Positions 20,301 to 42,386 of a stretch of DNA of 64,000 bases are shown piece after piece (position 1 is the stretch's first letter; every line of letters begins with the position of its first letter). The position numbers and the translations under genes were made by a program. Under the pieces are notes generated by a model. The model saw only the letters and a program-made list of their open reading frames with translations. It was not told the origin of the DNA and ran no database searches. The DNA comes from Tricharina praecox. Taxonomy: Eukaryota. Location: positions 62,001-126,000 of the forward strand of contig NW_026250418.1 of NCBI RefSeq assembly GCF_024521635.1. The letters run 5' to 3'.

Positions 20301-22535
20301 AGTTGACCTGACTCTGAACAGCCTTCCTTTGTTATTTGTGGCTTTGGGCAGAGTATAAAGGGAGGAGCGCGGGAGGGGGAGGGGGGAGGGCGGCACTCGT
20401 CGTTTGAGCCTGCGTATCCACGGATTTGCGACAGACTGACAGACTGACCGACCGCAAGAGCCGGGCGTGAGTCCTCGGGATGCACTGGTTCTGATTCTGG
20501 TGCTTTACCTATCACTGGAACTTCGAAAACCGTTCTCGTCCCGTCGGTCCGCTCGGCTGATTGCTTCGGCTTTGTGGACACCTTTCGATGTCTGCAATTT
20601 GCGTTCTGGAAAACAACGGAGACTGACTATTACATCCACGAGGTATCACCCCGTCCGCCGCCGGCCGATGGCTAACCTACACAGAACCGGCCGGGTCCGA
20701 GTTTTGGCACATGCCAACAACACTTCCAGATCCTTCTGGCACCAAGTAACTCGATTTTTACGGCCGTCTCGGCGAATACAACCCTCTCGACTCTCGAGTC
20801 GATTAATGCATTCTTGGGGACGAGAAGGCGGATGGCGCATGGCTGAAACGGTTGGAACCTGGAACTTGGAACCTTCTTGCGACACCAAGTGTTTTCATGG
20901 GACGCCACTTTTCAGACTTCACCCAACTATGTACTGACGGCAGGGAGTCCGCGTCGCATGTGAAGTTTGTATATTTCACACGGTATATTACTTAGGAGAA
21001 GCCCCCTCTCCCCCAACTTACTTCTAATATCTATAGGTACCGCGCTCACCGCTTTCCTCCGTCTGCGACGTATATTCTCGCGATCCGGTCTTGAGAATAC
21101 TACCGCATCCATTCCTACAGGCTACCTCTGGGTCGTCTCGAGTGCAAGATTCAAAGCTGGTTCGCGTCTCGTCCATCGATTATCACCCGGACGGCATCGG
21201 TATCGGCTCCACCCAACTGCGTTCGAATGCGCGAGCCGAATGGGCCCGTCGGCGATGGATATTTGATGGGCCTGGATTTCTCGGCCGGATTGCTGGCTGC
21301 TAGCGTGGATATGGGCGGGAGGGGTGGTGAGGGGAGGGGAGGGGAGGGCCGATGGGCGGGAACGGTATGGAGTGGTTAGGTTGGGGGCATGTGGGGGTAG
21401 GGTGGGAGAGGGGTTGGCGACGGCCGGTGGCCGGTGGCTGGTGGGCAAGAGGGAACACGCGGAGGTGGGATGAGGAGGGAAGCGAAGAACGAATCAGCAA
21501 CGAACCAAACGATACGGCATACCATGAATGTGGCCAGTTGGAGGAGGGCGGGAGGAACGGTCAGTGCGGAACGGAGTAAAGTTGTGGGGAAAGTGGGGTG
21601 ATAGGAGTGGGCTGGAGAAGGAGGGGGATGGAAAGGGAAGGGGAAGGGGAAGGAGAACGAGAAGGGGGAAGGGGGAAGCAAGACCAACAAGCCGGGATCC
21701 ACGACCAAATCGATATCCACCATACGTACACGGCTAATTATTGTTCCACGATGGAAGAAACTTAGACAACGGAGAGGAGAAGGAGCGTAGTTTGTAGGAT
21801 AACGGCAAATGAGCGAGCACCGGAACTGGCGACACTATGCCAGCTAACTACAGCTGAGAGAGGGTGGAAGATACAGACCGGCCGGGCCGGTCGCAAGAAA
21901 CGCTACCGACGAGTGAGTGGATTATTCACCGACAGCGAAGGAAATGTGATTGCAGTGCGAAAATTGTGTGGAAACGACAAGAACCGAGTACCGAGTTTAA
22001 TCAGGCAGAATTACAGGACGGATCTGCCGACCCGCGAGCAGAACGGCGATGGAACGATTCAGCAAATACCCGTACCGCATGGAACGAATGGTGCCAGATG
22101 ATCATGCAACTACTGGCACCATACCCTACCCTATCACGATGATCTTGCATCATATCGCTCCAAAGGACTGTCACACCCACACACTGATGCCAGTGCCAGC
22201 TGCAGGAATCCAACCTTTCCCCGGCACTGGGCGCAAAGTAATCGCCCGAGCACACACACACACCTTTTTTATTCCGCCGATCTACTTTATTTTCCCTTCG
22301 GCGAATTCTCGAGCAATCATGAGGCACCGCTTCTATTTGGGTGTCGGTAGTTTCCATTGCGATCGACGGAGGCGAGTGGGGCCGCACATTTAACCTTATC
22401 GAACACCTTACTTTATGCAGCGTGGGGGATTAACGTCTGACCTCATAGAAGCAACAATAATCTATTCCGATAACAATGCAAATACAATACAAATGAGACA
22501 CGATAGACCTCCTATATCGACAACAGAACATGCGC

Positions 22536-22590
22536 AAAAGGAAACCAAAGGACAAAAGGAAACCAAAGGACAAAAGGAAACCAAAGAACA
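22536..22590. repeat. 18-bp tandem repeat (aaaaggaaaccaaaggac) x3 in putative 3' UTR of 22742-22927
   Basis: Direct reading of sequence. Confidence 0.85.
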
Positions 22591-22741
22591 TAGTAGCCTC
22601 CAAAGAACACACCTCACGCCAAAGGACACAACACCCACCAAAGAACACAGCAGTCACCAAAGAACACACCACATAACGCCCGTCTAATCCTCTAGTATGC
22701 ATGCACTGACGGACCGAAACCAAAACTGGACTGGCGGAGGA

Positions 22742-22927
22742 TCACGTATTCGACCCGTACCGACGTTCGAACTCCCTCAACTGCTCCATAGCGCGGTCGC
22801 CGGCGTCGTTGTGACCCGGAAGCGGCACTCGTGCAATCCAGCCGGGTACATACACACCCTGTGGAGGCGCGTTGGTGGTGGGCGGGCTGGTGGGGGGTGG
22901 GTTGGTGGGGGGCGGGTTGGTGGGCAT
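22742..22927 (-). CDS. 61-aa microprotein, GW-x-x-RV-x-x-PG family member
   Basis: MPTNPPPTNPPPTSPPTTNAPPQGVYVPGWIARVPLPGHNDAGDRAMEQLREFERRYGSNT*; first ATG downstream of the TATA at 23389-23398; accaccATG context; ungapped homology to two other ORFs in the window. Confidence 0.75.
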   Translation of the reverse strand: MPTNPPPTNPPPTSPPTTNAPPQGVYVPGWIARVPLPGHNDAGDRAMEQLREFERRYGSNT

Positions 22928-23388
22928 GGTGGTCGGTTGGGGTGGGGAGTTGGTCGGGGTGGGAGTCGAGGTCGAGGTTCGATTTGTGTGTGTGGAAGGG
23001 TTGTCGCGACGGTCTGGTTCGGCGACGAAGTGTGGGTTAGCACCAGGTGGAGGACAAAGAAGTGATGGGCGAGAAGACAAAAGGGAGGAGTATGGGGAGA
23101 CGATGGTAGTGATTATAAAGAGAAGGGTAGTGGACGACTCACTGTTCGGTGGGAGGAGGCGGCGCTGGTAGTGGTGGTGGTGGTGGTGGTGCTGGGGGCA
23201 GAGGTGGCGGAGCAGAAGGGAGAAACACGAGGGAAAAGAAGTCAAGTAGGAGGTGGTGGATGGCGACGGTGGTGTAGTGGTGGTGATAAGTGGTGGTGGT
23301 GTTGGAAGCTGTCGGTGTTGAATCTGACAAAGGATGCTAATTTGAAGTGCAGTAGTGGTGTTGAAGCTAATTTATAGTGGAAACGCCG

Positions 23389-23398
23389 TTTATATATA
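23389..23398 (-). promoter_or_regulatory. TATA box (TATATATAAA) for 22742-22927
   Basis: Followed on the minus strand by a ~460-nt ATG-free, pyrimidine/CAC-rich leader. Confidence 0.55.
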
Positions 23399-25446
23399 CA
23401 CACGCTACCTCGCTCTCCGTTACGTTCTCCCTCTGTTCTGTCTGCCAAGCTGGTTCGCACAACGGGTTTTGCTGTTAGAGGCTTGGGAGGTGCGCACTGT
23501 GGGAAGCCCTAGGTCACTCTCTGGACCTGGTCTGTCGTGCGCGCGCGGGGGGGGAGGATGATACAAGTCCATGGGGGATACAATTCGGAATGGGTAGTCC
23601 GGGCGGCCTGCTTGTTGCGATGTGCGCAAGGCGCGCTTTTTGCGCCCGAACCGGATATTCAACGTGGTGGATGTGAAGTTGGGGGCGGACGAGAGACGAT
23701 AGACCACTTCTAGTGGCTTTTGGCGCTGCTGTTGTTGTCGTCCGCGATGGAGGTACAAGTCGAAACGACCGGGCTGACCCCTACAGGCGACTTCAAAATC
23801 GGGGATAATGTTTGCTCCTTCGACTTCCGATGTTTCTGCTGCTGATACTGCTGATGCTCTACTCCGGCTTCTGCTGCGGTAGTAGTGTGGGGTGGCGGTA
23901 TGCAACGAAGAAAGAAGAATGAAGAAAAAAAGAATAAAAGAAAAAGCTGCACACTCTCACTGGAACCGCGACCTCTTCTGCTCAAAATATTTGTTTTTGC
24001 CTGCCAGCACGATGCAACGGAAGACACCAAGCCCGCTTAGTCCTGAGGTCCACTGAGCACAGTTTCTGTGTGTGCTGTGTGCACAACACGGTGCCTGCTT
24101 ACCTAGAGGAGTACCGGCAACATGCACAGCCACAGCCACTAGGACAACAACGCACGTAATTTTCTTCGGAGCGACTTCAAGAGCTGGGTCGGTGCCTAGT
24201 CCCCTCAGGTCACCTATGTAGGCACCGATCGTTGAGGCGCCACAATCATATTCCATATATCATCCTGGCTGTTCGCAAAGTGCGCTGCAAATATTTGCTT
24301 TCGAGCTCACGGCTCGTATTCCACTCCACTGCTCCTCCTCTTTCCGGCGAAGTGCGAATTCTGGGGGCTTTGAGCACTAGCGTACGTTCGGATCCCTAAC
24401 GTTCATATCGCAGATTATTTAGGTGTCGAGTCTCACCCGGGCCGATATCTAAGACGCTGGGCGAGGCAACAGACCCGAAACTCCCGCGAACGGCGTCCCA
24501 ACAAAGGTCGGAAGTCGCACACAGCACTGCAGAGCCCTAGCCTCGACTGACCTCGCTTTGTCACGCCATGGTGGCAAATTGTGTGGCGTAGGCGAGTTAG
24601 TTACACACACCAAAACGCAAACACGAATACGTTACTCTACTTACCTATGCAGGGGGCGGGTCTTGATGCCATTCCGACCGGCACGAAGAATATGAGTTGG
24701 ACGTTTGATCGATCCCTGTCCGCCCCAGCACGCCGCCCTCGGCCAGTCAGATAAAGGAGCGGCTATGTACCAACGTCTTATACCCTTCCTTCCTCCGCTT
24801 GCATAGCCCCCCCGGGTCCTCTGTCGGCAGAACCCGACCGCCATTGAGAGGAACCATCGAGCAGGAAAGCCTTACATATCACACTGTCGTCGTAGAGATC
24901 CTGCGATTGTCAGCCAATTTGCCACGAACGCCGGCCAACCAGCCAATGCCACGATCCATCTGGATACGCAATATATGTGCCCGGCATCTCCGAAGAGCTT
25001 GAAGCTACTACCTATGGCGACGCCGTGTCTTCTGGCTGGCCGCTGGCGTGGGCTCAGTGTACGTTACCTTCTCGATAATGTGTAATCTCCGCTGCCAACC
25101 TAGCTTGCGAACCACCCTCATCCTGTTGGGAGCAACCACACTCCACTTCTGCTCCTCCATTCTTCCCAATACCCCACCATCCCACACTCCCGTTTCATCT
25201 CCTCGTTACTGCAATGCATGCTGCACATCATTCCTCTCGGCCCGCACGTCTGACGTGGCAACGTCAGCGTTCCATTGGCCAGGCTTGCGAGAAAAATGCG
25301 ATGGAGCCTTGTCGCAATGTCACGTGCAACAGCCATTTGATGTACATGGAGTACATATGACGCATGTACTCTACCTGCCCCTCGTAAGGAGAACGGGCAA
25401 GGAAGAAAGAAAGAAAGGGGCGAGCCGAGTCGCTGACCAGCCGATC

Positions 25447-25771
25447 CAGTGTTCTCCATAGTCTGATCCAGACTGCAGTCCGGACGGGGCGGACTGCTAA
25501 AATCCAGTCCCGTCCGAGCCTTTTAGAGGACCGGATAAAAGTAGTCGGTCCGTGACTCCCGTCCGCCACTCCAACCACCGATAGTACGCCTCGGGCTTTC
25601 TATCGTGATTTCTGTCGCCTTGTACCAGTCTTGGCAGTCCGTCCTGTCCGACCTTACTGGTGGACTAGGTAGTCCGTGCGACAGAAACCTCCGGACGAAC
25701 TGGATGTATGGAGTCCAGCCCCATCCATAGGTCCGGACTGACTGAACTGGACTGGACTATGGAGAACGCTG
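25447..25771. mobile_element. hAT-like MITE, 325 bp, related to 685-941
   Basis: TIRs cagtgttctccatagtc / gactatggagaacgctg (1 mismatch); flanks agccgatc / agatgatc (6/8, degenerate 8-bp TSD); shared internal word taaaagtagtc and ggact repeats. Confidence 0.8.
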
Positions 25772-25912
25772 AGATGATCTAGATCTCGATCTCCAAAGGT
25801 GCGGCCCCGCTCCGCTCTGCATATTCTCCTATCTCCAGCCTTGTGCAATACATAGGTTCCGAACAGAATGGCCGAACGCAATAATTACTATTAGCGCATA
25901 GGCCGCATACTC

Positions 25913-26010
25913 TAGTGTTCGACATAGCGCTGTCCGGACTGGACTGGACTGCCAAGATACAGTCCAGTCCGAGGGCTCAGGACGGAGGGACTGGACTATG
26001 TCGACCACTG
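25913..26010. mobile_element. Internally deleted 98-bp copy of the 685-941 MITE family
   Basis: tagtgttcgacatag ... ggactatgtcgaccactg ends match the 685-941 TIRs; interior ggactgccaagatacagtccagtccg matches 873-898. Confidence 0.75.
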
Positions 26011-28289
26011 TAGGCGGTCGCGATTCTGCGCTCAGTGCTCAGTGCTCAGTGCTCGCCCAGCCTCTCCGATCACATCTGTTGTTCTTTACACTTACCTATT
26101 GTAAATTCGAGAGGACCTGGACGAACGTCCCGATGTGCGGAATCGAGCCGAAAATATTGCCAACTCCCTACGGGCCCCTTGGGACTGATGACACGTCTAA
26201 CTAGGTAGAGTGCATACAATGTGCGAGAACGGCGCATTTCCGAGTGGATGAATGACTGGATGCACTGAGGAACGGAGTCATTTCCATGTCCACGTCCTCC
26301 TCCTTCTCGAAGGTACTCCACTCTACATACAGTGCTCACTCCGCTCCGCCCAGTCCCTTTTGCTAGCCAGAATTAGCAGTTTTCGCCTATTGCGCACATC
26401 GTTGTGTGTGCACTGTGAACGATGTTTTGCTATCTAGAGTATTTCGCTGATGCCCACTGCCGACGCGTCGTCGAAATAGGGATGTGTGGGCGGATTCGAT
26501 GTCGGGATAACTAATTGACGGCGGCTGCTTGTTTCGCACTTATGCACCTAGCCCTGCAAGCCGCTAACGGTCAGCTCCGCTCATTCTCAGCCTCCGAAAC
26601 AAGGCGAGTCCTTCCAAAGGCTTCCATCACATGGCTCGTGCCTTCCTTCGCCAATCCTCAATTCCCAATCCTCAATCCTCAACACAAAGATCCTTGCCGG
26701 TTTCCAGGAATGTTGACCGGAGGATTAAGGAGAGCCTCAAAACGGCGGGGTGGGCTGTGGCCAACGGCCCAACAACGCCATGTTTTCCATTCGGTTTGAG
26801 ATTTGAGTTTAACCCTCACAAACTTGAATGGCATCCAATACATACCCGTAGTAGCCCGAACCCTCTGAGTGCAAGATAGACAGGGGAGAACATGATTGTG
26901 GGCGTGTGCACTCCCACACGATGTCGTTGCTGCGAATCGTTGACTCTTCGATGATGGCACTGGATGGCCAGGCTCCCACGAGGAGTACATAGACCGCACG
27001 ACCTCTCGGGGAAAATGGAAGCCTTTCGCTCCGCCCCCTTCCCATCTCGTGGCTTTTTTTTGAGTGTATCTTGCGGCCGATCATAGTTATCTATTCCTCC
27101 GACTCAGCTCACCTCGCCCTCCCGGAGAAGCGAGATGGACAAAAGGAGGAAAAGAAAAGCAAAGGAAAAGAAAAGAAAATACTGCGAAGTCTACATTAAT
27201 ACTCTATAATAAAGCTCTCTTGGCTGATGGGGTAACACCAGCTCCCTGCCTGCCTACCGATCGTACTATTTGTTGGTACAGCACCGTTCGCAATTGTTCA
27301 CTGTGCTCTACGTACCTATCATACCTATGGAGTACTGTACACACCACAGATAGGATATCTACGGAATTGGCTGATCTCGGCCAACACGATCGACCCATAC
27401 TGATACCCATACGGTCGGATTCCCTTTGCGCGCCCGTATGTACATGTACATTAAGTGGTTACTTTAGGTATTTATACATACCGGTAATACTTGCCTGTCT
27501 GCTGGCCATACAGATTTCAGATTTCCCTTTTACATAGGGGCTCCAGCGGCCTGGTTCGTGGGTAACTGGAGTATAGTGTGGTATGTACAATACTATACTC
27601 AGGTACTCTACACGATCTCACAGCCTGTTACGCTAGAGTCGCGTACTCTACAGCAGTCACGGCAGTTCACTATGTGGCTGCAGCCTGCAAGGCATCTCAT
27701 CCTTCGAGATGGAGGGTTCCCGCACCTCCCTCACACATTCACTCATACTATTTCATTCACACACTTTCACCCACACACTCTCACACGCACTCACTCACAT
27801 ACTTTCACTCACACACTTTCACTTACACACACACGCCACATGACACGCACGCAATCGGGTTCTCCCGCCAGCGGCCAGCCCCATCTTTGCTCCGCCCCCC
27901 CCTCCAATCCCCGATGTATCGACTGATATCCCCGAGCGTGATACGGTAGTTGAAGGGAAAAAAAGACAGCCGATGACGAAAAGAAAGGGAAAAAGAGGCT
28001 GCACGTGGATAACGTACTCTACTGCGATGTTGCTTGTTCCATATCCATATCCGAACGAGGCTATGTCACTATCTACTGTATACTGTACAGTACAAGGTGG
28101 TACATAGGTAAGTACCTGTTGCTTCTCGCCTCTTTACACGTCCCCGTGTCTAGAGGAAAGTAGAGTTCCGTAGATATGAATATGCTTCGCTCTCCAAAGC
28201 TACTAGTAGATTTTCACGTGCCTTCCACACACCTATGGTGCGTGCGGTCAAGAAAGGCCATCGATTTGCGGCTCCAATTTCAGGCCAGC

Positions 28290-28690
28290 TAGCAGCCGGC
28301 TAAAACGGCGGACGGTCCGAGCCTGGGACGGACGGGTCGGTCCCCGTCACGTGATCATATTCTTATCACTCGTCCCAATAAGGGCATACACTAGCCGTTT
28401 GCAGATACGCGAGTGAGATATAATGATATGTTTTGTGTGGGGATCAACTACCGTTGGCCAGTACAGCGCACAAAATTGCCAAGTCTTCCTCACGCTGTTG
28501 CTGTGAGAAGGAGTAGTATCCGGACTTGAGAGCCTAAGGTACACGCTCGAAATCAGGTTTTTGCCCAAGGCTTCGCAGCGGACGGCCGTCGACTGGCGCC
28601 CGTCAGGTCGTAGGGCTCGGACGGGCGGTAGGCACGCCGTCCGTCTTCGTCCAAGGTCCAGGACAGACGGACTGAACGATAGAAACGCTG
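28290..28690. mobile_element. Non-autonomous GGAC-rich element homologous to 60-362
   Basis: Shared words listed for 60-362; ggacgg-rich blocks at both ends; left boundary uncertain. Confidence 0.55.
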
Positions 28691-28706
28691 TGGAAATTAT
28701 TCTCTA

Positions 28707-30506
28707 GTGCACCAAACTCTCTTGAATTTAGTGGTTACATGTACCTACTCGGTTAGAGTATGAACAACTTTTCGCACCCGGAACTCAGCTGTTCAACAAC
28801 CATCCGCAATACCTATGGGCCGCCGATCCAGACACCACCAGTAGCGCATGAATTCTTTGGGCCATGTCCAGAATCAGGGAAGAAAAAAAAAGATATACTC
28901 CAGTAGCCTCCGACCTCCACGCTCCTCAACATCTGATAATAGTTCGTCTCAGGATACAGCTACTCCGCTCGAGATATCCGCAACATCAAGCGGTTTTCTT
29001 CTTCGATAACGCCACCAATCATGCTGCCTATGCAGAAGACGCACTCTATATACCGGTATTCAACAAAGGACGAGGTTAGGGTATCGTGATTTCTGAGTAC
29101 CTCACGCCCAGCGAGATTCTTGCATGGATTGTGGCTGTTGTGTCCGTAGGTTGCATCCTGATCGCAGAAGAGGCTGCGTACCACGAGGTCCAAGGTTGAG
29201 TCGTTCCGCGCGGAGTACGTCTTCTGCATAGGCAGCATGATTGGTGGCGTTATCGAAGAAGAAACTCGCTTGATGATCAGAATACCGCTGTTCGAAAGAG
29301 AGAATCGTCAGATCCTTGAGCTGAGCGATCATGTCATCACAAGTCCAATAGCCTTCCTTCCCAAAATCCCGGATTTGAGTACATTCCCGGAATGTATCAC
29401 CATCAGGTGTCAAGTGTTCCGAAACCATCATACCATAACCCCGTCCTTTGTTGAAAAACGGGATATGATCGTCGTCCACCCCAGCTTCACCATCAATCAC
29501 TCGTCTACTATCGGTAGAGTTGAAGGTGCATTCGTCGTGGGTAACGGGAACACGCGGGCGGATAGCCGGGGGTAGCGGTGCCGTAGGGGGTTTCCTGAGA
29601 TACGTTCCGGCAGAGAATCCGTCGCTGGTAACAGTTCGAACTGGACAAAGGTGGGTTCGAGCTGTGCGAGCTGGGGAAGGAAAACTTCGTTCCGATAAGC
29701 CACCACATCGGGCCGTTCGTGGCCGTCCTTGTACATGCCTTCCCGAAGGTCTTTCCATGAGTATCCACATCTGTGAAACCACTCGATTGCCGTCCGCTCA
29801 GCGAGTTTCTTGTCTTTGTGCTCGGGCAGCTCGGAGTCCGTCCAGAACTGTGTTACTGCGTTTGCAGAGCCAGGAGCACTACTTCGACTCTTCGAGTGCT
29901 CTCCCAAGTCGAAGAGCCGGTATGATAGAAGATTCTGTGGGCGGCGGTTCGGAAGAAGACCGGGAAGGGCAAGGATCGCTTCGAGGTCTGAGACCTTTTC
30001 GTAGACGAGCGATGTAGCCAGCCAATCAATCCTGGACTTTCTCGTCACCATGACGTGAACAGGCGCATCCCGGAGGTTGCTGAGGAAGACGCAGCCAGTA
30101 GGGTGTCGGAATGGGAGCTGAGGGAGCGAGAGGAAAGACAGGTGGAGATGAGGCGAGAGGAGAAGGAGGGTGGTGAGGTCGAGGAGCCGGGTCATCCCTG
30201 CTGTTCCTCCCCACCCCTCCCTCGTGTCATCTTCTGACGAAAAGGCAGGGAGGCGAAGGTTTGGCGAGCGGACACTTTCTTTCCCTAGCTTTATTTTCTT
30301 GGTGCGCTCTACATGTATATTGGGGGAAAGGCTAGGGCGGACGGTAGGGGAACCGACAACGGACCGCCGACTTCGGTCGGGTCTAGATGGTGGACAAGGA
30401 AACAGCGTGTGTATTACCATGGTCTAGATGAGTCACAATCAAGTAATGACTAGACAAAAAAACACTTTTGCTCTTGCCCAATAATATCTATGCAAGTTAT
30501 GTGCAC
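28707..30506 (-). mobile_element. Decayed IS630/Tc1/mariner-type DNA transposon with degenerate TIRs
   Basis: Contains the transposase pseudogene below; gtgcaccaaactctcttgaatttagtgg (28707-28734) resembles the reverse complement of 30478-30506 (gtgcacataacttgcatagatattattgg). Confidence 0.6.
29102..30050 (-). pseudogene. Frameshifted, 3'-truncated DDE transposase
   Basis: Frame 1: GEHSKSRS...ERTAIEWFHRCGYSW...GMYKDGHERPDVVAYRNEVFLP; after a frameshift near 29600, frame 2: VTHDECTF...KGRGYGMMVSEHLTP...GKEGYWTCDDMIAQL...FFFDNATNHAAYAEDVLRAERLNLGP. These motifs are typical of fungal Tc1-like DDE transposases; the third catalytic region is missing. Confidence 0.85.
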
Positions 30507-32400
30507 CCTCTCTGGCCACGTATGCACACGCCGGACGCCGAAGAGGTCCTATCGTAATCCACCTCTACGATATCGCAGATCCTACTTGCTTGAGAAGTGC
30601 GCTGCTCCTCCTCTCTTCGTCTTTAGAGTGTGCTAGACCTTCAAACTTTGGATCTCTAATTCCCTCCACCGTAACGCAGAAGCATAATCGGTTCTCGACT
30701 CCATGAAACCTACATTCCAGTCACAGTAAACTGCGGCCGTAGAGTAGATTGCACTACTTTGCGCTGTAGGCTCCCAGTTTCATCCTTCGTGTTCACCTCA
30801 AACGCTGGATGATATCCTCCGCCAAAGCATTAGTTAGGGCCGAGCCTTGCTTTAGGCTTTCTGGTAGTCATCCGCACTTCATTTGATTGAGTGACTGGTA
30901 TTTCATACAGCATAACCTTAACGTTATGGCCGGTAGAGGTCTGTATCCACAATAAAGGATTTGACAAAGAAATTTCACCACTACCAAACCCCAGAAACAG
31001 AAATGCCAGTCCGGTTCCCTCTGCCCTCGCAATCTTTGCAAGTCAGCCTCCGAAGAGGCTCGAGTTGTCCGTTTTGCGCTGTAGCGGCGCGTGGTAGCCG
31101 TCCTCTTCCCCAAAATTCACCCACTCGGTATGTTCTATTCTCAACATAGCCAGTCTGGCGGACACGGCATGGTACTCGGAAGGAATCGTCGTCTCGGGGG
31201 TTTACGTAGCTGTCGAGGCCGGGGGCCCGATGATTGGCGCGTATCTGGATCGAAGGCGGGATTGGTGAAATGCCATTGTCGTGGTTCGTCGTGGTCCATG
31301 CGCAAGACGCCGAGCCCCTTCCTTGGAGTTCACACTGCTCCTCGCCGTCGTCAGCTCTCCTCTGCACTTCATTTCACTTGGTGGGCTAAATACCTCCAGC
31401 TATGATCTCCAACCACAGCAATTCAGTCCAGGGCACCGGCTTTCGAGAGGAGCTTGAGTCACCGTCCATCGATCATCGATGATAGGCGCCCGCCAGGCTA
31501 TGACTATGAGGCCCAGCCAACACCCTCGGGGATCCTACCGTTCTTAGGCATCAGCTCGATACCTAGTTTCCCGATATATGATGCACCATCGGACTAGCGG
31601 TAGTGGGGAGGACGACTGTTTGGCAACCCGGTACGGTGTTATTAATTCTGGAGATTACTGTGGAGGCGATGATTCGTTTGTTCTTTTCCCTCATACTTCG
31701 ACGGAGTAGTCAGGGAGACGGAGACGGGTAGATAATGGCAATAGGAAGGAAGCTAAATGAGAGGGAAGTGCCAACGGCGCTGGGGGGGGGGGGGGGGGGG
31801 GGGGACATAGAAGAAAACGGCGTGTATGTGCTAGGTAGTTAGTCCTGAGCGGTGAACGATATACGCACCGGGTATCCTAGGCCTCCACTAGGCCCTGCTC
31901 TTGTAATTGATTCGCTGTGCTGGTGACATGATTCGAATCCTCATGGCGATCTCTGCTCGCCTCGTCTGGCTATCAGCTATCATTTGGTGAGGGACCGTAG
32001 AACGTCTGCACTGAGCGCCGAGACCATCAACACCGCTCTCCGCTTATAACTTATTCGAACAACTTATTACGGGCCAGTCTGACCGGAAATGATACAGAAA
32101 AGGTACGAATCCGTGTCTTGGTGTTGCCATATCAGCACCGCGCGTACAAGGCTGTGTACGCAAGCCGCCGTTTGTCCATACTTTTCCGTGGGTTTGTACT
32201 CTACATGCCATTATTCCTGCCGTGAACATTCTTGTTGTTGGCAATATGTTTCGAAGTTGCGAGATCACCACATACCGAGTCTGCGGATCCGTATGCGCTT
32301 CTCGCGAGAGAAGAAGCTCCCAGAGACGTCGCCAGCTCGACTTCCAAAGCATAGGTAATGAGGCTTCTAGGGTTTGTCCGAATGCCGAAAGCCTTATGTA

Positions 32401-33043
32401 AAGTACCAGGTCAAAAGTTTTCGTACACCTCCCCAAAAGCGCCACCACACCACAGACATATATCTGTATAACACAACAACCACACTTAAGAGAGTACTAA
32501 CAATTGGCATTTATCATGAATATATACTAATAAAGCTTCAATGAGATTTCCAGCTCGCCGGGCGGATTATTTTATGCGAAGTAGAGTGGCTTGGCGGATT
32601 TCCCTTTCACCGAGGTAGGTCATTTCCCGCCATAGATACAGCAACCATAAGGTAGTATAAAAGTATGTGGACCATTAGAAGGTCTTCCAAATCAGGTAGA
32701 GAGCCTAGATTGAAATCGGCACATAATTCTAACTGGTGGTGGTTGAGTAATGCCATATGGGAGAGAAGTTGGTGCTGAAACTGGTTGTCACGCAATAATT
32801 TTGTATGGGGGCCCCATACAAAATCTGAAATCACTCTCCAACCTGTGCACAACACCGTACCATGCGCCACCAATCCGAAGAAAAAGTCGTCAGACTTCTT
32901 ATATGTGATGCATCCTGCGATTCTAAAGCTTCTATGAAAGACTCGATTTTTTTCCGCCACGTGAAGGGTGGGTTTTGGTTACTTGAAAATGGGCCTTTTT
33001 GGTGTAAAACGGCCATCGTACGAAAACTTTTGACCTAGTACTT
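32401..33043. mobile_element. Tc1/mariner-type MITE, ~643 bp, TA target duplication
   Basis: TIRs aagtaccaggtcaaaagttttcgtac (32401-32426) / gtacgaaaacttttgacctagtactt (33018-33043), 1 mismatch; TA on both flanks; AT-rich interior without a credible ORF. Confidence 0.85.
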
Positions 33044-36000
33044 TACTATACCATCGGCATCCTGAAGAGCCAGGGCTTAGCCGTCCCAGTCTCCCGGATC
33101 CCGGTTCAGCGTAATTATTACGCTTATCCTTGTGCACATCCACGTACTCTACATACAACTCTTTATCCAAACTCCGGTAGGTAGAGTAAGTACCAAGTAC
33201 TACATATCACGCCTTGCGGACGCCATACGTACCAGCGTTAATCCTCCACTGCGGTAAGGGATATATCCGGCCAGCTTTTGACGTCGCCCCATACACGGCC
33301 TCTGGACGCACCAATTGAGCGCATGCTAAGACAGTATGTATCTAGGTGACTCCGGAGCATTGCCTATGACACGCTGCGCATGGCAGGTATTAGGTATCCG
33401 GACATGCAGCCTTTTCTTAGACATGAAGCCTTTCCTTGATCAGCAGTTTTTCATCCAGGATCTCCGATTTGAGCGAAGATTTGCATTCTACTCTAGAAAT
33501 TCCATCGTGCCGAATGACTGCAATAGGTATTATCTACTACGAATAGTGGCAGTCGCACCAAGAGGTGTCCGCATACACTTGAAGCCAGGTAGTAGATGAC
33601 AGCTGGCTTCCTACGGACGGGCGTCTTAAGTTGTAATCCCTACGTATTCCTACGACGACGACTGCGGAGTTTGAATTTCCCCGAGTAGAGTTATGCCGAG
33701 TGTGCGGCAACGTGGTGTACGCAACTGTGCTTACATACAGGTGATGTGAATATGACAACATGCCCAACTCTCGGAAACCATCGTATCCGTAGGCATGTGC
33801 TAAGATGTCGGAACGGGATTTTCGATGGCGTATATAAAGGTAGTCAGCCCTCCTGCGTGCAGATTGTTCTGAAAGGTTTCTATGCTGATGGGGGTTGGAC
33901 ATCACTCAGTTCTCCAACAAACAAACGACTCCAGCGCATGCCATCTCCCTGCCTACATGCAAACATCCAGGCCGTCCACCAATCATCATACATGACCGCA
34001 AACGACAGAACTTTCACAACAGCACTCGTACATGCTGCAAACAGCCATCCGTGTTGGGGATTTATGTAGTGAAGGATTATTTGCCATACCAGTAGTGTGT
34101 TACCAAAAAAGAGTTCAACCGATTGAGTCGACCGGCAGCGAAAACGTCGATTGCACAACAGACCGGCCAAAGGAGATGTAACCACTAGCTGGACATTCAC
34201 AGGAGATAGAGCTGTTGGATGCGCATGTCAGCTAGGAAGAGCAACTTGCACTTCCCCAACACTGCACTGGGCACTTGGAAATTGGGTGAGTGCATTCAGT
34301 ACCCACTGCTTAAGCCACCCAAGCACGTTGGAGCACAGTAGCTATTACCTACCGTATTGCACCTTCATCCGAGCTCAATTCCAAGCGACCTACATCTCCA
34401 CAATGCAAAATGCATATGGTCCACAGCGGTAGGTACGTGTTCGTTGCTCGCCCAAGCTCCGCGCTCTTCATAAAGAGTTCCTTGGCTCCTAAGGTTGATG
34501 GGGCTGTTGGGACGTGCTTTAAATCCTATCAAACCTAGCAATCCGCTTCTGTTACATACATGCCAGCAACACCCGTCGCCGCCCTCTCGAGCCTTAATAT
34601 TCCCAAAAATTACCTACTTTCGACGTCATTTGCCGTGCGATGGCATTTTCTTATTTCGTCACCATTCGCATAGTTACAGCCATCTTGACGATGGTGAAGC
34701 ACAATGTCCGAGACTCAGAGTACCCATCCTGCCTGCAGTTCAAATAATCGATTCGGTGTAGCGTCCCTCCCCTGCTCATTGGCCATGCGACTGACGCGAT
34801 CCCCGAGCCTCTGTTGCGACTCTGCATCGATCTATGAAATCATCACTGGCTCATCCGGATCTCGACATGGGGGCGCTTTTGAAGCTTCACCTTGTTTTCA
34901 GCCAACTCAGCCCTCTTCAACAGGTTTCATTTCGGAAATTTACTCCATACGGTGTTTGCTCGACATCAGTGGCCTGCCTACTTACTGCGGCGTCGATTGT
35001 CGCTTTCGAGCTTCATCTTACTCTAACCTCCTCTATCAATGGCATTAACGCGTCTTGCGTCCATGCATGTTCGCGTCCCTACAACGAGCTTAAATGCATT
35101 TATTCGGCTACGGCTTAAATTGCTAACCGTATCAAACAACCCTTACTCGAACCAGTCGCTATTGGAAACATTCCACCTTCCCCGTTATCCTCCCTGCCCC
35201 CCAGCCTTCGAGTCAGCTCTAATCCCTTGAATCCCTCGAATTCCGGCCCGACGTCGAGAGTTAACTCGGACATCAACACTTCAGCACCCACGCCATCCAT
35301 ACAAATTCCAACCGCTACATACCTCCGCGCCGCAATGCGTACGTCAACGTTCGGCGACTACACAAGCGCGATGGAGCTTTTGGCGTTGGCGACGTTCAGC
35401 TGATTCAGGCGTACGCAGCCACACCTTTCGCCTGAACCGTGCCGAAGTCATGTTGCTTTAAAGCTTCAGCTGAAGAGGAGCGTATGGAATGTGCGCAGGC
35501 ATCTCCATGATGGAGTACAGCCTGGCGTCTGTGTGCTTCGAGAATGGATATAAACAGCCGATGCAATCTCGACTCTTGGGCTACCTACTCTGCTTCGAAC
35601 CGATTTGCATCGAGATGGTTAACCGAGTTTGAAAACTTTACTAGTTAGCCCTTGCCGATATGACTGAGTCAGAAGACTTAGCCTTAGGCTCGGCCACCGA
35701 TCCTCAACTGAGGATAGCATCCGGCGAGGAAAGACTCGAATACAACAGTGACTCGCTGCAGCTGCAGTCCGACCATCTTACTTATATCGGCCGGTCCCCG
35801 TCCGTCCGTATGGGCGCAGTTTACGATTTTTATCTGTTTCGACACGGGGGGCGTTCGCATCGCCACCGAAAACGATGGATTTTGCTCACCACTTCGAAAA
35901 ACGAGTATCAATTCCATCGCCATGGCTCGCCGATTCGGGACTTTGGTCCTTGCAGTCAGTCTTGGATCCTCGGTCCAGTTGAAGGCAAGCAGTTTGGTCG

Positions 36001-36579
36001 CCTAACATGACTGAAACGTCCGAAACACCAACCGCGTGGCCTTCAGGAGGCCGTGGAAAGGATGTTCACCGAGGATGTCAACGCCAGGCAGGCTTCCCAT
36101 CGTATGTTGAAACACTTTCCTCAGGGGGGGGGGGCGAATCTGCATGCTGCGGAGTTGTAGTCACGAGCGGAGACACTGTAATCTTGACTCATAGATCACA
36201 TCATCCCGCCCATCCCCGCTCATCCCGCTCATCCCACTCATCGCAGCCATCTCACACAACCTGACACAACTTCTCTCCATCTCTGCATCTCGACTTCCAC
36301 ATCTGTGAATCTCAACTTCCCCATCACTGATGTATAGTTTCCGCTTCACCCGGTCTACTCGACTCATTCAGGCTCCAACGAATATTGGTCAGCGGGGGTG
36401 GGAGCGGGCAGTTTCGCTTGTAAGCTGTATCGCATACCCGCCGGTTATTTTTGTGGTATGTATGTATGTCGACTCATCGGCCTCCCTGGCACAGCATAAT
36501 CATATTTCATACTGATGGTTCCCAGCTCTAACTAACCGGTTGAAAGCTGCCATGACCTACGTTGCACTCACGGCGGCTC

Positions 36580-36750
36580 ACTCGGAGTCCGTATTCCTCA
36601 GTCCAGTCCGGACTGCAGCCCAGACGGCGCGGACTGCCGTCGTTCGGTCCAGTCCAGTCCAGCAAATTCTTTCGACTGTCGAGGGTCAGCCCGTCTAGTC
36701 CAGTGCTCGGTTAGACTACCTAGGTAGGTAGTCCGTCCTCAGTCGACCGC
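36580..36750. mobile_element. Degenerate remnant of the ggact/agtcc MITE family
   Basis: cagtccagtccggactgcagcccagacggcgcggactgcc resembles 709-736 and 25465-25497; no intact TIR. Confidence 0.55.
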
Positions 36751-38033
36751 AGTTGACTCCACACGCTTTTTGGAAAACGCTCCTGTCACTCGGCCATGTC
36801 AGAGGAATCACCCTGTCACTGCCATTTCGATGAAATACACCTTATCACTCAGCCTTCCGAAGGCTGGAGTCGGAAGGGGAGCTGAGGAAAGGAAGGAAGG
36901 AAGGAGGGAGGGATCACCGGAGCGATTCAGTATCACTGCGAGCGGAAGATTGTCGAGTGCGGATGCGGCGTTTTAGGGGGGCTTTGGAGAAGGCGGGAGG
37001 AGTCTAGCCTCTTTGATGATGGATCGCCACGCATAATATCAGAGTGGACGCTGGGGAAATGGATGGCCTTGGAGGGGAGGTCAATGGGAAGGAACGGAGA
37101 GAAGGCCCATGAGCGGAATTCGAATCAGTATATATAGCCACGGTCCACGGAAAAAGACGAACTTGTTGCCACGAATGAACTATGCCGGATATGAGGCAAC
37201 TACGGAAAGGGAAAGATAGGAAAGGGAGCGAAAGGAAAGGGAATAGAAGGAAAGGGAATGAGGAAGCAAAGGGAACGACGACTGAATTTAACAACGGCAA
37301 ACCAGTATAGGTACCACAATTCGCAATACATTCTCTCGTCCAGAGATCCTTTCCACTACCCGCTTCCTCGACATTGGAGCACGCCCGATGAACAGTGCAT
37401 ACCGTAGCCGAGGATGGCGTTATCCCTACCGACGACAACGATGCCTTTGAAGCTATTTGGTGACAAGCTACCAGGCATCATTCCTCTCGCGACCGTCTCC
37501 ATTCCTCTCACAGGCGACAGATCCGCTATACTAAAGTAGGCCGATGAGGATGCCGCAGGAAGACTGGAGATTTTGCGGTATCAATTATCACACTTCGGCC
37601 TTCCCCGGCCCCGTATGAGTGTGAATGGCACAATGTTGTTCTGATACCTACCATGGACCAGGGAGGAGTCGAAGGTTTATGCAACTCTCGACCACTAGAA
37701 TCCCTAACCCTACCCCTATAGAGTATTGTGACTGTCACACGCACGATAACAACTCTGTCCTCCCGCGCCTGCGGGAGTCATACATATGGGGTATCCAACT
37801 TTTCCTCATGGACGACAGTGGGTGCCTCAATTGACCGAATATCTGCTTCAATTCTGTACGTCTACTTTTTTCCCTCCTCCAGCGCACTCAGGGACGATCA
37901 TTGGCCCCAATCCCCTCGATGAGTGTTAACCATGCAATTAGGGCGGCATTTGAGTTGCACGATTGGCTCATCAGTGTCAGACATTGAGCTTGTGACATTC
38001 AAAACAACGATACATCGAGGAGGACGCGTGGCG

Positions 38034-38140
38034 TACAACAAGACGCGACTGAGAACCATATTACATATCCACGGCAGAAAAGGGAATACAACAAGACGCG
38101 ACTCAGATCCAGATTACATATCCACCGCGAAAAGAAAATA
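38034..38140. repeat. 53-bp imperfect tandem duplication in putative 3' UTR of 38384-38566
   Basis: tacaacaagacgcgact...ttacatatccac at 38034 and 38087. Confidence 0.8.
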
Positions 38141-38383
38141 CACGATAGAGAAAAACCGAGCACACGGCATCGTACAAATACACATCAAAGCTGCAATACA
38201 ACACCGACCGAAAAGAGACAACATAATGACAAATGACACCAGCAACCCCTTCCCTTCTAACCAGACCTCTAACGACAATAGAAAAAAGCACTGTCGAACC
38301 CAACCCAACCGATGCACCGAGATGATGACATGACAGCCGAGAAAGAAATAAAGAACCGAGGCGAAAATCGAACCAGATAAACA

Positions 38384-38566
38384 CTACTTCTTCGGCGACT
38401 GGAATTTGAGATCGAAGTCCCTCAATGACTGGTCGGCGTGGTTGCCGGGTTGGTTGTACCCCGGGACGGGCACGCGCTGGCGCCAGCCTTCCACGGACAC
38501 ACCGGTGGGTCGGCTGGCGGCGTGACCGGACTGCGCAGCCGCATCGGGACGGGTCGAGGAAGGCAT
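38384..38566 (-). CDS. 60-aa microprotein, GW-x-x-RV-x-x-PG family member
   Basis: MPSSTRPDAAAQSGHAASRPTGVSVEGWRQRVPVPGYNQPGNHADQSLRDFDLKFQSPKK*; TATAAAA at 38870-38876 (minus) followed by an ATG-free leader; ungapped homology to paralogs. Confidence 0.75.
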   Translation of the reverse strand: MPSSTRPDAAAQSGHAASRPTGVSVEGWRQRVPVPGYNQPGNHADQSLRDFDLKFQSPKK

Positions 38567-38869
38567 TTCGATGAAGTCGGTTGCAGTTGAGAGTTAAGAG
38601 TGGTCGACTTGTGTTTGGCGGGAGGTTGGTAGCGACAACCTAATTCGACGATGACGAAGAGGCGATGGACTCGGGCTCAGGAGCGAGAAGAGATGAGAAG
38701 TGTGTGCGGGGCGGCGATGAAGAGGAAGAGGAAGAGGCGATGAGCGTTTGCGGTCGCAATGGAAGAGATGAGGAAACAACAACCCTCTTGTACTGATGAT
38801 GGGTGGTGGTGGGGAGAGTAGCGAAGCTGGACGAGATGGGCACAACCAAGAACTGTCGAGGGTCGAGCA

Positions 38870-38876
38870 TTTTATA
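38870..38876 (-). promoter_or_regulatory. TATA box (TATAAAA) for 38384-38566
   Basis: Canonical TATA ~300 nt upstream of the ATG with a CT-rich leader. Confidence 0.55.
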
Positions 38877-40458
38877 CGCAAGCCAAATCTCTCACCACGA
38901 TTTTGCTTCGCCTCTACACGCCAGGTTCCGTGGCGTAGGGAGCAGGAGCTGGGTGCTACGGGCTGGGTACGGTGTCAGCAGAATGACCCCAGGTCCCCAA
39001 CCAGGGCCAGTCAGGTTGGCACCCAGGGCAGCGTTGAGTGATGATCAAGGGTGGGTGATAATTTTCCGCTCATTGTTTTTGCTGGATGGGTGCCGGGCGG
39101 GCAACTTCCCAAAAGTGCGCGGTCTACTTGTGTTGTGCGCACGGGATTCAGATTTGTTGGGGGGAGTGGTCGAAGTATGCGCGGAGGGATGATACAACTG
39201 CTAAGCAAACGGGTGTCGCTGTGTGCTGGTGCGGCGCCGGGCCCGGATTTCTGTTAGGTGTGTCGACGTGTGTCGGGGGAGGGAGCACGTTGGGGGAGGG
39301 AGGGAGCGGAGAGCGTTGGAGCTGGTTGCAGTCACTGATTTCTAGGCGTGGCCCGAGTGTGATCGCAGTGCTTGTCCAGGTTACACTGAAGGTGATCACC
39401 TCGAATACAGGAGTTGCGGCTTGCGATGGAATGTATCGAATTTTGCCCCACCTCAACCAACGATCAGCAGAGACTTGAGAAACTTAGCGATCGCAGAGCT
39501 CTCAATTTCCGCGCCAGCTCACTTTGCGAGCGAGACCATGCAACCTCTCCTATTCGGCGGTGTTCGTAACGCCTTACGGTTGCTACGCACCTACGTACCT
39601 GCCAGCTTTGCTGCAGCCTTCCCGGAGTTCGTCTCGACGAAGTTCTCGAGTACAGCAGAGCACAAGTCTACCCGACCCTAACCCTCATGGATCCCCGCCT
39701 TAAATCCAAGATTTGAATCAGTGTGGGGGCTTAGTTGTGACCGTGTGCACATACTCTACTCTAGGTCGCTCCCCCGTCTGGTCTTCCTAGCCAAGCACAC
39801 GCCGCACATCTGCAGTGGCAGCGGCTTGAATGGTAGTTTTTCTGCCTGATTTGATCCTCCCTCGGAAGGAAATCCACTCTACGTGCAATACATGCGCATA
39901 TGGGAGTGCTGTGCCAGTTTACCTTTTTTTCTTCCCCATCACAGCTTCGGGCCTGATGATCAGATGATTGAATGGATTTAGATATCGGCGACATCGATAA
40001 AAGATGAATACAATAGAAACAAACACGAAAAGAAAAAAGAACCCAAGGCATAATCCAAAACAGAAAGGACGAGAATATCAGACACGTTTGGACGGCCACG
40101 AGACCATTCTTAAACACCAAAAAAATCGAATGAGAGAATCGCGAGGTACCAACCGTCGGAGACATGCATGCAACCCAACACAATAGAAACAACATCCGAC
40201 AAACCCCAAAGGAAAAATGACATCGCTACATAATTCCAAAACAGAAAGCACAACGCTGAAAGCAAGCTCTTCGAACGCCCCGTCGTCGATTTAGAATACA
40301 TCAAACAGCCTGCGAAAGCCACGAACCCCAAAAGAACACCTCATCAATCATCGATGACCGGCGACAGTGATGGCGATGGCGATAGCGCAGACCGACACCC
40401 ACACCCTACCCTCGAACTCCAACACCATAACCCTCTGCATGGCACACACCTAGAGCGT

Positions 40459-41349
40459 CTACCCTGTCGAGCCAAATTGACTATCGAACTTCCTCGCGGC
40501 TTCTTTGCCTTTGTTGTCGGAGGGGCGAAAGCCTGGGACATATACTCGCTCGCGCCAGCCGGGTATATGTACACCTCTCACCTGTTGGGGAGGATTTGCA
40601 AGAGGAGCAGCAGGAGGGAGGGCCGGGCGACCAGGTGCAGACACATCACGGCGACGAGAGGACCCAGATCTGGCGTGACGACTCGAACGTCCACGATCAC
40701 TGGCTCGATCATACACGTCGGCAGCGAAGACGTTCCGACCGGAGGATGGATAGCCACCGGTACGACCACGGGATTCATGGGCACCATCGTAGCGAGTCGA
40801 TGATGAGTCACCGCCATTTCGACCGGAAGCGCGAGAAGTCGAGGGACGATGCGACGATTCAAAATCATCGGCAGGGCCATATGCTCCAGAAGCTGTGGCG
40901 TAACGGTCGGAGGATGTGCGGTACTCGGTTTGACGAGAGGATTCATGGGCACCATCATAGCGAAGCGATGAACCATCGCCATTGCGACCCGAAGCGTTAT
41001 GAGTGGGGTGACGATGCGACGACACACCATCGTAGCGAGTCGATGATGAATCACCGCCATTGCGACCGGAAGCGCGAGAAGTCGAGGGACGATGCGACGA
41101 TTCAAAATCATCGGCAGGGCCATATGCTCCAGAAGCTGTGGCGTAACGGTCGGAGGATGTGCGGTCCTCGGTGCGACCATAGAATTGTGGAGCACCATTG
41201 GGGTGAACCGACGATCCATTACCACCGCTGCGAACGGACGAGCCAGGAGCTGCGCGACGCCGCGAAGATCCATGACCGCCAGCACGGATATGAGCACCAT
41301 CGTCACGACGCGACGATCCATCTGCACCGGTGCGCTGTGGGGTAGCCAT
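40459..41349 (-). CDS. 296-aa Ser/Gly/Arg-rich repetitive protein with the GW-x-x-RV-x-x-PG module at its C-terminus
   Basis: Intact ORF; internal 81-codon-period repeat; ends GVHIPGWRERVYVPGFRPSDNKGKEAARKFDSQFGSTG*; CATAAAT at 41521-41527 (minus). Confidence 0.8.
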   Translation of the reverse strand: MATPQRTGADGSSRRDDGAHIRAGGHGSSRRRAAPGSSVRSGGNGSSVHPNGAPQFYGRTEDRTSSDRYATASGAYGPADDFESSHRPSTSRASGRNGGDSSSTRYDGVSSHRHPTHNASGRNGDGSSLRYDGAHESSRQTEYRTSSDRYATASGAYGPADDFESSHRPSTSRASGRNGGDSSSTRYDGAHESRGRTGGYPSSGRNVFAADVYDRASDRGRSSRHARSGSSRRRDVSAPGRPALPPAAPLANPPQQVRGVHIPGWRERVYVPGFRPSDNKGKEAARKFDSQFGSTG

Positions 41350-42386
41350 TGATGTCGGCCGGGTTTGAGGTTTGAGGTTTTGGGACGGTAGCGAAGAACT
41401 CAGCGACGACGGAGGGATTTCAGGACCAGTGTATGGCGAAGAGGGTGATGCGCCGTTTCAAAAATGTGAAGTGAGGAGTAAAAGTAAAAAGAAGTGTGTC
41501 GAGGAGGGGGGAAGCCTACCATTTATGCAACCTTCTCACTGTTCACCTCTGGATATGGATTCTATGCCAAAGAAGCGGAGGGGCGACGTCCTGGGTGTGG
41601 TAATGTGCCGTGTGCGCAACCCAAGGTCGACTCAGGTTCGGTCCGGGCTGTGGCGGCGAAGATGGGGTCAGGCATGTTCGGGTTTCTCTCGTTGTGCGCA
41701 ACGCTTTCTCCATTCAGATGGGTCGTTGCCGTCATTCTCCTTTCTCAACCCGGTCTGCGCGTTGATGAACAGGTATGGAACCAGGGTGATCAGAACCAAC
41801 ACGAAAGGACCGACAACCTCGTTGAAGATGGTGTTGCTGAGCTTGGCACGAGGGATATCGCCGGCGAGCTTCTCCGGGGGGTCTCCGAGGGCCTTGCGCT
41901 TGTAACCAGTGATACGGGTTGACGGGCTGCACGTTGGGGCAAAATTAACATGAACGCGACTTCGGCTGCTGCTGGTACTGCTGCTGCTGCTGGCCCGCCG
42001 CTGCTGTCGATGTGGCACTGTGAAACAAGTGCTGGTATTGCCAGTGTTGCTCGTTCTGGCGTTGCCGCTGCTGCTGCTGATGCTACGGTGACGTTGCTGG
42101 GTTGCTAGGCTATTGGATCGCTGGACTGCCGAACTGCTGTCGGTGGTCGGTGGTTCTGCTGATTACCGCTGTCGTTGTTGTCGGTGATGATGTTACTGCT
42201 GCCGTTGCTAGTAGTATTTGTCGGCAGCTCATCGTAAGCGTTCTAAGATGCTACCATCGAGATAGCTAGGTAAATAGGGGGCAAGCGGGGGAGATGCCCG
42301 ATCTGCCCGCATGAGCTCTTGATCCATGGAAAGATGGTTACCCGGCTGTCATCGCACCCTGCGGCCAAAGAATAGTGAGAGTAACT

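Follow-up and report, generated by a model that had tools for sequence, protein, structure and literature searches.

A stretch of 64,000 nucleotides of the Tricharina praecox genome (contig NW_026250418.1 of assembly GCF_024521635.1, positions 62,001 to 126,000, hereafter the window) carries three minus-strand open reading frames (ORFs), designated ORF1, ORF2 and ORF3, whose predicted products end in a common 36-residue module. These ORFs belong to a genuine protein family that is narrow in its taxonomic range, has not been described before and includes old tandem paralogs, and comparison with a syntenic ortholog identifies ORF2 as a conserved short ORF that was overlooked by gene callers. On balance, the evidence tilts towards reading ORF1, ORF2 and ORF3 as three members of this family in which the module would serve as a fold-on-binding anchor on disordered, hydrophilin-like bodies. 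The ORFs and their modules are as follows:

ORF1, 22742..22927, minus strand: 61 amino acids (aa), a (PTNPP)-type repeat followed by the module (from translation)
ORF1 module, 22751..22858, minus strand: 36 residues (from gapless module alignment and codon comparison)
ORF2, 38384..38566, minus strand: 60 aa, in which a short linker joins the family start MPSS to the module (from translation and the syntenic ortholog)
ORF2 module, 38396..38503, minus strand: 36 residues (from gapless module alignment and codon comparison)
ORF3, 40459..41349, minus strand: 296 aa, the start MATPQRTGAD, a Ser/Arg/Gly-rich body of about 250 aa that is predicted to be disordered, and the module (from translation)
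ORF3 module, 40468..40575, minus strand: 36 residues (from gapless module alignment and codon comparison)

Re-translation reproduced the coordinates and translations given for these ORFs in a preliminary description of this DNA, together with the gapless alignment of 36 residues with 11 invariant columns (G1, V2, G6, W7, R10, V11, P14, G15, R28, F30 and S36), the position of the module end at 2, 3 and 2 residues from the stop in ORF1, ORF2 and ORF3, respectively (NT-stop, PKK-stop and TG-stop), and the codons quoted for the R-V pair (CGA GTG, CGC GTG and CGA GTA) and the P-G pair (CCG GGT, CCG GGG and CCA GGC). Across the family, the module follows the pattern G-[VA]-x-[VI]-x-G-W-x-x-R-V-x-x-P-G, then a helix, and lies 0-3 codons from the stop in 8/8 family sequences. 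Using single ORFs as phmmer queries against 2055 six-frame pieces of the window, each ORF alone retrieved the other two with E values from 1.1e-9 to 8.7e-5, the next piece being at E 0.23 or worse, and the outside protein P0005, which is of unrelated origin, retrieved all three from the same pieces (E 7.8e-13, 3.5e-10 and 1.7e-5). A hidden Markov model built from the three sequences found no fourth module copy in the window (next match E 0.13). As measured by these searches, the similarity of ORF1, ORF2 and ORF3 is beyond chance. This likeness is at the protein level and not that of a DNA repeat, since the nucleotide identity of paralogs is only 56-62%, with codon position 3 being conserved least (0.47-0.53) and position 2 most (0.61-0.69); in pairwise comparisons of paralogs, synonymous codon differences are found at 5-6 of 14-17 identical residues. 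The initial designation as dispersed microproteins needs narrowing: only ORF1, located 15.5 kb off, is dispersed, since ORF2 and ORF3 lie in tandem at a distance of 1.9 kb, and the small size applies to ORF1 and ORF2 (about 60 aa) but not to the 296-aa ORF3.

An HMMER search of 1.84 billion representative proteins with a profile built from the three modules yielded nine proteins at E 1e-3 or better, four of which carry the whole module at the very C-terminus, namely P0003, P0005 (194 aa), P0007 (319 aa) and P0010 (197 aa). P0003 is ORF3 of the window and is its sole member in protein collections, which bears out the expectation that the short members, ORF1 and ORF2, are missed by gene callers. 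The remaining five proteins (P0006, P0008, P0009, P0011 and P0012) match sub-stretches of the profile only, 4-13 times each; the sequence of P0009 is that of an unrelated repeat protein, and P0006, P0008, P0011 and P0012 were set aside from the match table alone on the basis of their sub-stretch matches. Three word-indexed searches, covering 5.8 billion proteins, recovered this set of carriers and no carrier of 27-102 aa among called proteins, uncalled members in other metagenome contigs not having been searched for. Since profile and word-indexed searches return only four full carriers and none of 27-102 aa, public data contain only a very small family, whose short members are nowhere called.

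In agreement with the earlier failure to recognise the module, no named family could be assigned to it. Pfam-A contained no matching family for any of the three window proteins even at E up to 10, and none for the stop-to-stop frames of ORF1 and ORF3; a profile of six modules matched no chain among PDB sequences at E up to 10; a Foldseek search against PDB reached at best E 7.7 with a query model whose predicted local distance difference test score (pLDDT) was only 66; and the ESM Atlas gave no usable feature match for ORF2 or for the ORF3 module, its structure rows having template modelling scores of at most 0.41, on a helix. The string RVPVPG was not found in the literature. Among short linear motifs, a type 1 peroxisomal targeting signal was dropped upon reading of the C-termini (SNT, PKK, STG, YGL, FKR, FNR and RRA), and so were nuclear localization signals of the PY-NLS type and SH3 class I motifs. 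The RVxF motif for docking to PP1 has the consensus [RK]-x(0,1)-[VI]-{P}-[FW]; it was rejected, as the invariant R-V of the module is followed by P-V/L/T-P-G or Y-V/S-P-G, with no F/W at the required place in 8/8 sequences.

The age of the paralogs and the constraint acting on them were assessed using two metagenome loci, L001 and L002, which are identical where they overlap and carry P0007, the ortholog of ORF3. L002 is collinear with the minus strand of the window over six blastn segments:

52.4-54.4 kb, minus strand: three segments within one gene
40513-40674, minus strand: C-terminus of ORF3
38437-38568, minus strand: ORF2 coding sequence
about 36.0 kb, minus strand: a patch

At the protein level, the conserved pieces over 21 kb are the neighbouring gene (68-79% identity), ORF2 (48%) and ORF3 (34%), and no others. 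An uncalled 64-aa ORF at L001 8496-8690, which lies on the strand of P0007 about 1.5 kb further downstream, is the ortholog of ORF2: it starts with MPSSGHPDA, contains an ORF2-type module (EGW..RVP.PG.NQPGNH) and ends with PPKK-stop. Comparison of the window with L001 around ORF2 gave the following identities:

ORF2 coding sequence: 122/180 (68%), gaps of 15 and 3 nt
ORF2 leader: 156/315, gaps of 5, 10, 1, 2, 5, 3 and 4 nt
ORF2 3' flank: 50/109, gaps of 1, 1 and 19 nt

Identity in the flanks is 46-50%. For ORF2 and its ortholog, the proportions of nonsynonymous and synonymous differences (pN and pS) are 0.285 and 0.483, with a ratio of nonsynonymous to synonymous change (omega) of 0.46 by the Nei-Gojobori method (Fisher p 0.017), and for ORF3 and P0007 omega is 0.35 over 234 codons (p 6e-10), with an uncertain alignment of the body. 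An old paralog family under protein-level constraint, as had been postulated, is supported by the syntenic occurrence of the ORF2 and ORF3 types in a diverged relative, and by this comparison both types predate the split from that relative, whose neighbour protein is 68-79% identical. The absence of ORF1 from these loci is uninformative, since L002 extends only about 8 kb beyond the ORF2 ortholog, whereas ORF1 is 15.5 kb beyond ORF2 in the window.

Alignment of the members reveals a three-part layout, comprised of a start motif M-P-S-S-x-R / RTGAD (not in ORF1), a hydrophilic middle region and the 36-residue module. The N-termini had been regarded as unrelated, which holds for ORF1 but not for ORF2 (MPSSTRPDA) and ORF3 (MATPQRTGAD), whose common start motif recurs in P0005 (MPSSSRTGAD), in the L003 protein of P0007 type (MSPPYRTGDD) and in the ORF2 ortholog. 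The longer predicted N-terminus of P0007 is treated as an artefact, since this extension lies in another frame in L003, its 98%-identical variant. The middle region is mostly basic, highly variable in length and made from in-frame tandem repeats, and all long members have a Ser/Arg/Gly/Asp/His-rich body. Such repeats in the window are:

22866-22924, minus strand: 15-nt in-frame tandem repeat of ORF1, encoding its N-terminal (PTNPP)-type part
40782..41224, minus strand: in-frame tandem duplication in ORF3 with a period of 243 nt (81 codons) and 89% identity over 200 nt

The body of P0005 contains a repeat of about 43 aa and the ORF2 ortholog has GQST three times; in ORF2 itself, a 12-residue linker separates the family start from the module. 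In ORF1, the stretch preceding the module (SPPTTNAPPQ) resembles APPATNQPPR of P0005. Module identity amounts to 21/36 for ORF1 and P0005, 19/36 for ORF2 and its ortholog and 19/36 for ORF3 and the P0007 type, and to 9-17/36 between the three subtypes, with a module tree supporting the ORF3-type clade only. The short form may be ancestral, with long forms having arisen via repeat expansion. The GC content at third codon positions (GC3) is 0.74 in ORF1 and 0.79 in ORF2, like in the APG12 (0.76) and E1 (0.62) exons of the window; ORF3 has a GC3 of 0.44 and many T-ending codons.

AlphaFold2 was run independently for ORF2 and ORF3 with an 8- or 7-row family alignment and predicted a short helical turn at G-W-x-x, a bridge and one helix, spanning residues 42-55 in ORF2 and 280-292 in ORF3. 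The mean pLDDT is 66 for ORF2, with 70-73 in the module, and 50.5 for ORF3, with 61-80 in the module and likewise over residues 241-296; residues 1-240 of ORF3 are at 41-52 without secondary structure, and the Atlas model of P0003 has a pLDDT of 0.37. The strand-plus-helix element on a disordered tail that had been proposed thus finds its counterpart in a turn or extended part followed by a helix of 13-14 residues in a chain that otherwise lacks structure, as predicted for two paralogs. By reading, the conserved hydrophobic residues of module positions 27, 30 and 34 fall on one helix face. Prediction of a homodimer from two copies of the ORF2 module (residues 18-60) gave a score of 0.00, which, with controls not run, has no weight either way. 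The isoelectric points of ORF1, ORF2 and ORF3 are 6.5, 10.0 and 10.6, their glycine contents are 8.2%, 8.3% and 13.9% (8.2-15.6% in four relatives), and their grand average of hydropathy values are -1.03, -1.04 and -1.26 (-0.82 to -0.93 in the four relatives).

According to the anchor reading, the module alone would be unable to form a globular domain and would fold upon binding, with its Gly/Trp/Pro-rich first half and the helix stripe of positions 27, 30 and 34 docking onto a putative conserved cellular partner. The repeat body would provide a tunable, hydrophilin-like disordered mass, and ORF1 and ORF2, being nearly module-only, would occupy the same putative partner without a body, following a microprotein logic. 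Any role in stress or desiccation protection is a guess. A more specific version, in which the tail is a new anchor tethering repeat-built hydrophilin-like proteins to one target and the paralogs of about 60 aa are competitive regulators, is considered quite improbable; if true, it would constitute a built-in microprotein circuit in a filamentous fungus, unseen by current annotation.

Evidence for expression comes from two runs, X1 and X2, whose assignment is a guess; 98% of query words were present in them, and their contigs were mapped on 22400-41700. They are taken as RNA, since intron-type joints are present, 8/12 joints having GT..AG or CT..AC ends, and since the depth is uneven, ranging by bin from 0.76 to 1361 over 19.3 kb and falling below 4 at 32.1-33.3 kb. 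Provided that X1 and X2 are RNA, the loci appear to be transcribed, the contigs being strandless, with the following depths:

ORF1 (bin 22400-23043): X1 418, X2 803
ORF2: X1 705-817, X2 518-554
ORF3: X1 1361, X2 1152

No joint lies within any of the three ORFs in the X1 and X2 contigs. X1 contig 6 and X2 contig 11 span ORF2 with zero differences, the 3' part of ORF3 is also covered by contigs without difference, and a soil metatranscriptome contig of 151 nt matches, without differences, at 40278-40428, just beyond the ORF3 stop. A TATA or TATA-like box is located 175-470 nt upstream of each of the three ORFs, and the CT-rich leader between box and ORF contains no ATG:

23389-23398 and 23371-23376, minus strand: two TATA boxes upstream of ORF1 (-471 to -449), putative promoter elements
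23014..23142, minus strand: putative ORF1 leader intron of 129 nt (GTGAGT ... CTAAC ... AG), a candidate that no joint confirms
38871..38876, minus strand: TATAAA 310 nt upstream of the ORF2 ATG, preceding a CT-rich ATG-free leader, a putative promoter element
41521..41527, minus strand: TATA-like CATAAAT about 175 nt upstream of the ORF3 ATG, a putative promoter element

For ORF1, no ATG occurs between the TATA boxes and its own ATG; contigs break at a repeat (23152-23204) adjoining the putative leader intron, and one X2 contig begins inside this intron at 23123. The same layout is seen in L001, where the ATG of the ORF2 ortholog is preceded by a CT-rich leader of this kind and, at a distance of about 300 nt, by ATATAAG.

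Further elements were noted in the surroundings of the three ORFs. The motif TGCGCACA is located at 23621-23629, 39134-39141, 41611-41619 and 41693-41701 (all on the minus strand), 260-700 nt upstream of the three ORFs, and in 3/4 of these sites it takes the form TTGCGCACA; it is also found at L001 7956-7963 (plus strand), 540 nt upstream of the ORF2 ortholog as compared to 568 nt in the window. Against an expected number of 0.59, the window contains 5 copies of TTGCGCACA. The motif may be a shared cis-element, but TGCGCACA has 10 occurrences in the window overall. Tandem repeats of GTTCTTTGG / TCCTTTGG-type units (gene strand) lie 3' of the ORF1 stop at 22535-22673, tandem GGTCCTCTTCTC units (gene strand) lie 3' of the ORF2 ortholog at L001 8740-9090, and scattered TTCTTT/TCGG copies are found 3' of ORF2 and ORF3. 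On the plus strand, introns were located at 36420-36546 (alternatively 36455-36524), 37856-37941 and 39050-39367 (X2 only). Spliced plus-strand sequence read from 36547 to 38700 contained no convincing long ORF, and this transcript (36419-37942, 39049-39368) may be non-coding or antisense, converging on or overlapping ORF2.

Several observations weigh against the anchor reading. Constraint is only moderate, with omega at 0.46 in ORF2 and at 0.63 over the final 60 codons of ORF3, and the ORF2 ortholog has V in place of the invariant F30 and S in place of R28. Between the 98%-identical ORF3-type variants L003 and L001, coding differences equal flank differences (10/729 versus 13/912 ungapped columns), 8/9 codon changes are nonsynonymous and one is synonymous, and the stop is displaced by two codons (KR-stop versus KRRA-stop); indels alone spare the coding sequence (0 versus 12 gap columns). 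Since coding sequence and flanks differ alike in this pair, the family evolves fast, with substitutions that look neutral at short range. Among the loci compared, ORF1 has no ortholog, and it lacks the family start, its nearest relative P0005 being 194 aa long. In addition, the three proteins are predicted translations, the RNA contigs are strandless, and plus-strand spliced RNA lies beside, possibly across, ORF2 (joints 37855>37942 and 39049>39368, GT..AG on the plus strand). Some of these points are shared by the main rival, a drifting-relic view of the short ORFs and above all of ORF1, according to which only the long ORF3-type protein works and ORF1, perhaps also ORF2, are transcribed relics of longer paralogs, having lost the repeat body and drifting without function. 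This explanation, which is regarded as unlikely though to be reckoned with, draws on the missing start motif of ORF1, when P0005 has both start and repeats, on the degraded helix half of the ORF2 ortholog (F30 to V) with omega at only 0.46, on the lack of any called member of 27-102 aa and on the near-neutral substitutions between L003 and L001. It is opposed by the retention of the start, stop, frame and short length of ORF2 in a relative for which alignment is lost over most of the 20 kb around it, by the TATA box and long ATG-free leader preceding each of ORF1 and ORF2, and by their GC3 of 0.74-0.79, which resembles that of the APG12 and E1 exons.

Two other explanations concern the module itself. 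It could be a self-association element, leading to oligomers or condensates of the disordered bodies and not to docking on a different partner. Three paralogs with the same module appear co-expressed in the RNA-like contigs, and condensate-forming proteins typically have an amphipathic helix with aromatics on a low-complexity Ser/Arg/Gly/Tyr body, the type of arrangement seen here; self-association is rated as rather improbable. Alternatively, the conserved element might act as RNA or DNA, either as a regulatory site or as a non-coding RNA, with the open frames being incidental. A 19-nt stretch of the module region that is identical in ORF2 and its ortholog, antisense frames that also match across species and the plus-strand spliced RNA nearby are in line with this. 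However, codon position 3 is where paralogs differ most, and their invariant residues are encoded by different codons; the module lies 0-3 codons from the stop in all eight sequences; across species, the sense frame yields the longest match and the one with the best E value (3e-14 over 66 residues versus 1e-8 over 40); and the gap lengths within the coding sequence are divisible by three. A nucleic-acid element is consequently viewed as very improbable.

The window has a GC content of 47-58%, and its introns are short, of the GT..AG type with CTAAC branch sites. Pfam matches were obtained for 3/139 six-frame pieces of at least 110 aa, corresponding to a pyruvate-dehydrogenase E1 exon, an APG12 exon and a piece of 1,3-beta-glucan synthase. 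The latter, at 41671-42162 on the minus strand (best part about 41730-41925), matches positions 719-782 of 819 of the Pfam Glucan_synthase model (E 1.4e-9); it comprises 64 residues from the C-terminal part, follows a CAG/Ser-Gln-rich stretch and immediately precedes ORF3, with which it shares the strand. Window pieces of at least 110 aa include no further part of a glucan synthase, and neither L001 nor L002 contains the fragment. This lone fragment is probably a gene relic. Taken together, the short introns with CTAAC branch sites, the TATA promoters and the APG12 and glucan-synthase homology suggest that the host is a filamentous fungus.

Among known systems, hydrophilins are a physico-chemical class of stress-linked disordered proteins, exemplified in yeast by Hsp12p, with induction by osmotic or desiccation stress as a further mark of the class. 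PMC11277543 defines them by a Gly content above 6% and a hydrophilicity index above 1.0, and ORF1, ORF2 and ORF3 exceed both values when this index is assumed to be minus the Kyte-Doolittle mean. Like hydrophilins, the window proteins are predicted to be disordered and are abundant in the RNA-like contigs. Unlike hydrophilins, none of the four relatives reaches the hydrophilicity cut-off (-0.82 to -0.93), the window proteins match no Pfam family, LEA and HSP9/HSP12 models included, and the family is mostly basic with a conserved Trp/Pro/Gly module at the very C-terminus. MicroProteins are small paralogs of larger proteins from which nothing but the interaction module is retained, and they work by competition. 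ORF1 (61 aa) and ORF2 (60 aa) resemble them in having little beyond the module that is common to members of 194-319 aa, but a functional domain that might be regulated is not recognised in the long members, and any interaction is putative. Precursors of KEX2-processed repeat peptides or of dikaritin-type ribosomally synthesized and post-translationally modified peptides have an N-terminal signal peptide and KR-flanked repeated cores. As small fungal tandem-repeat proteins, they share with the present family that they are often overlooked by gene callers; in contrast to them, the window N-termini are polar (MPTNPPP, MPSSTRPD and MATPQRTG) without KR-bounded repeat units, by reading, and conservation resides in a single C-terminal module and not in the repeat.

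The family has neither a name nor a model, and its general kind is known, namely lineage-restricted disordered proteins and unannotated fungal short ORFs. The latter, together with taxonomically restricted genes, are reviewed in PMC11413187, and the short ORFs of the window are similarly lineage-restricted and overlooked by annotation, but differ in having a longer annotated paralog and, for one of them, a syntenic ortholog. They are therefore better supported than a lone short ORF would be, and the locus provides a concrete testable case of conserved fungal short ORFs escaping gene callers. If the tail docks, one small constant module would be combinable with freely expanding disordered repeats, and module-only copies might regulate. 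If it does not dock, this would still be an abundant lineage-restricted family that deserves a family model for annotation.

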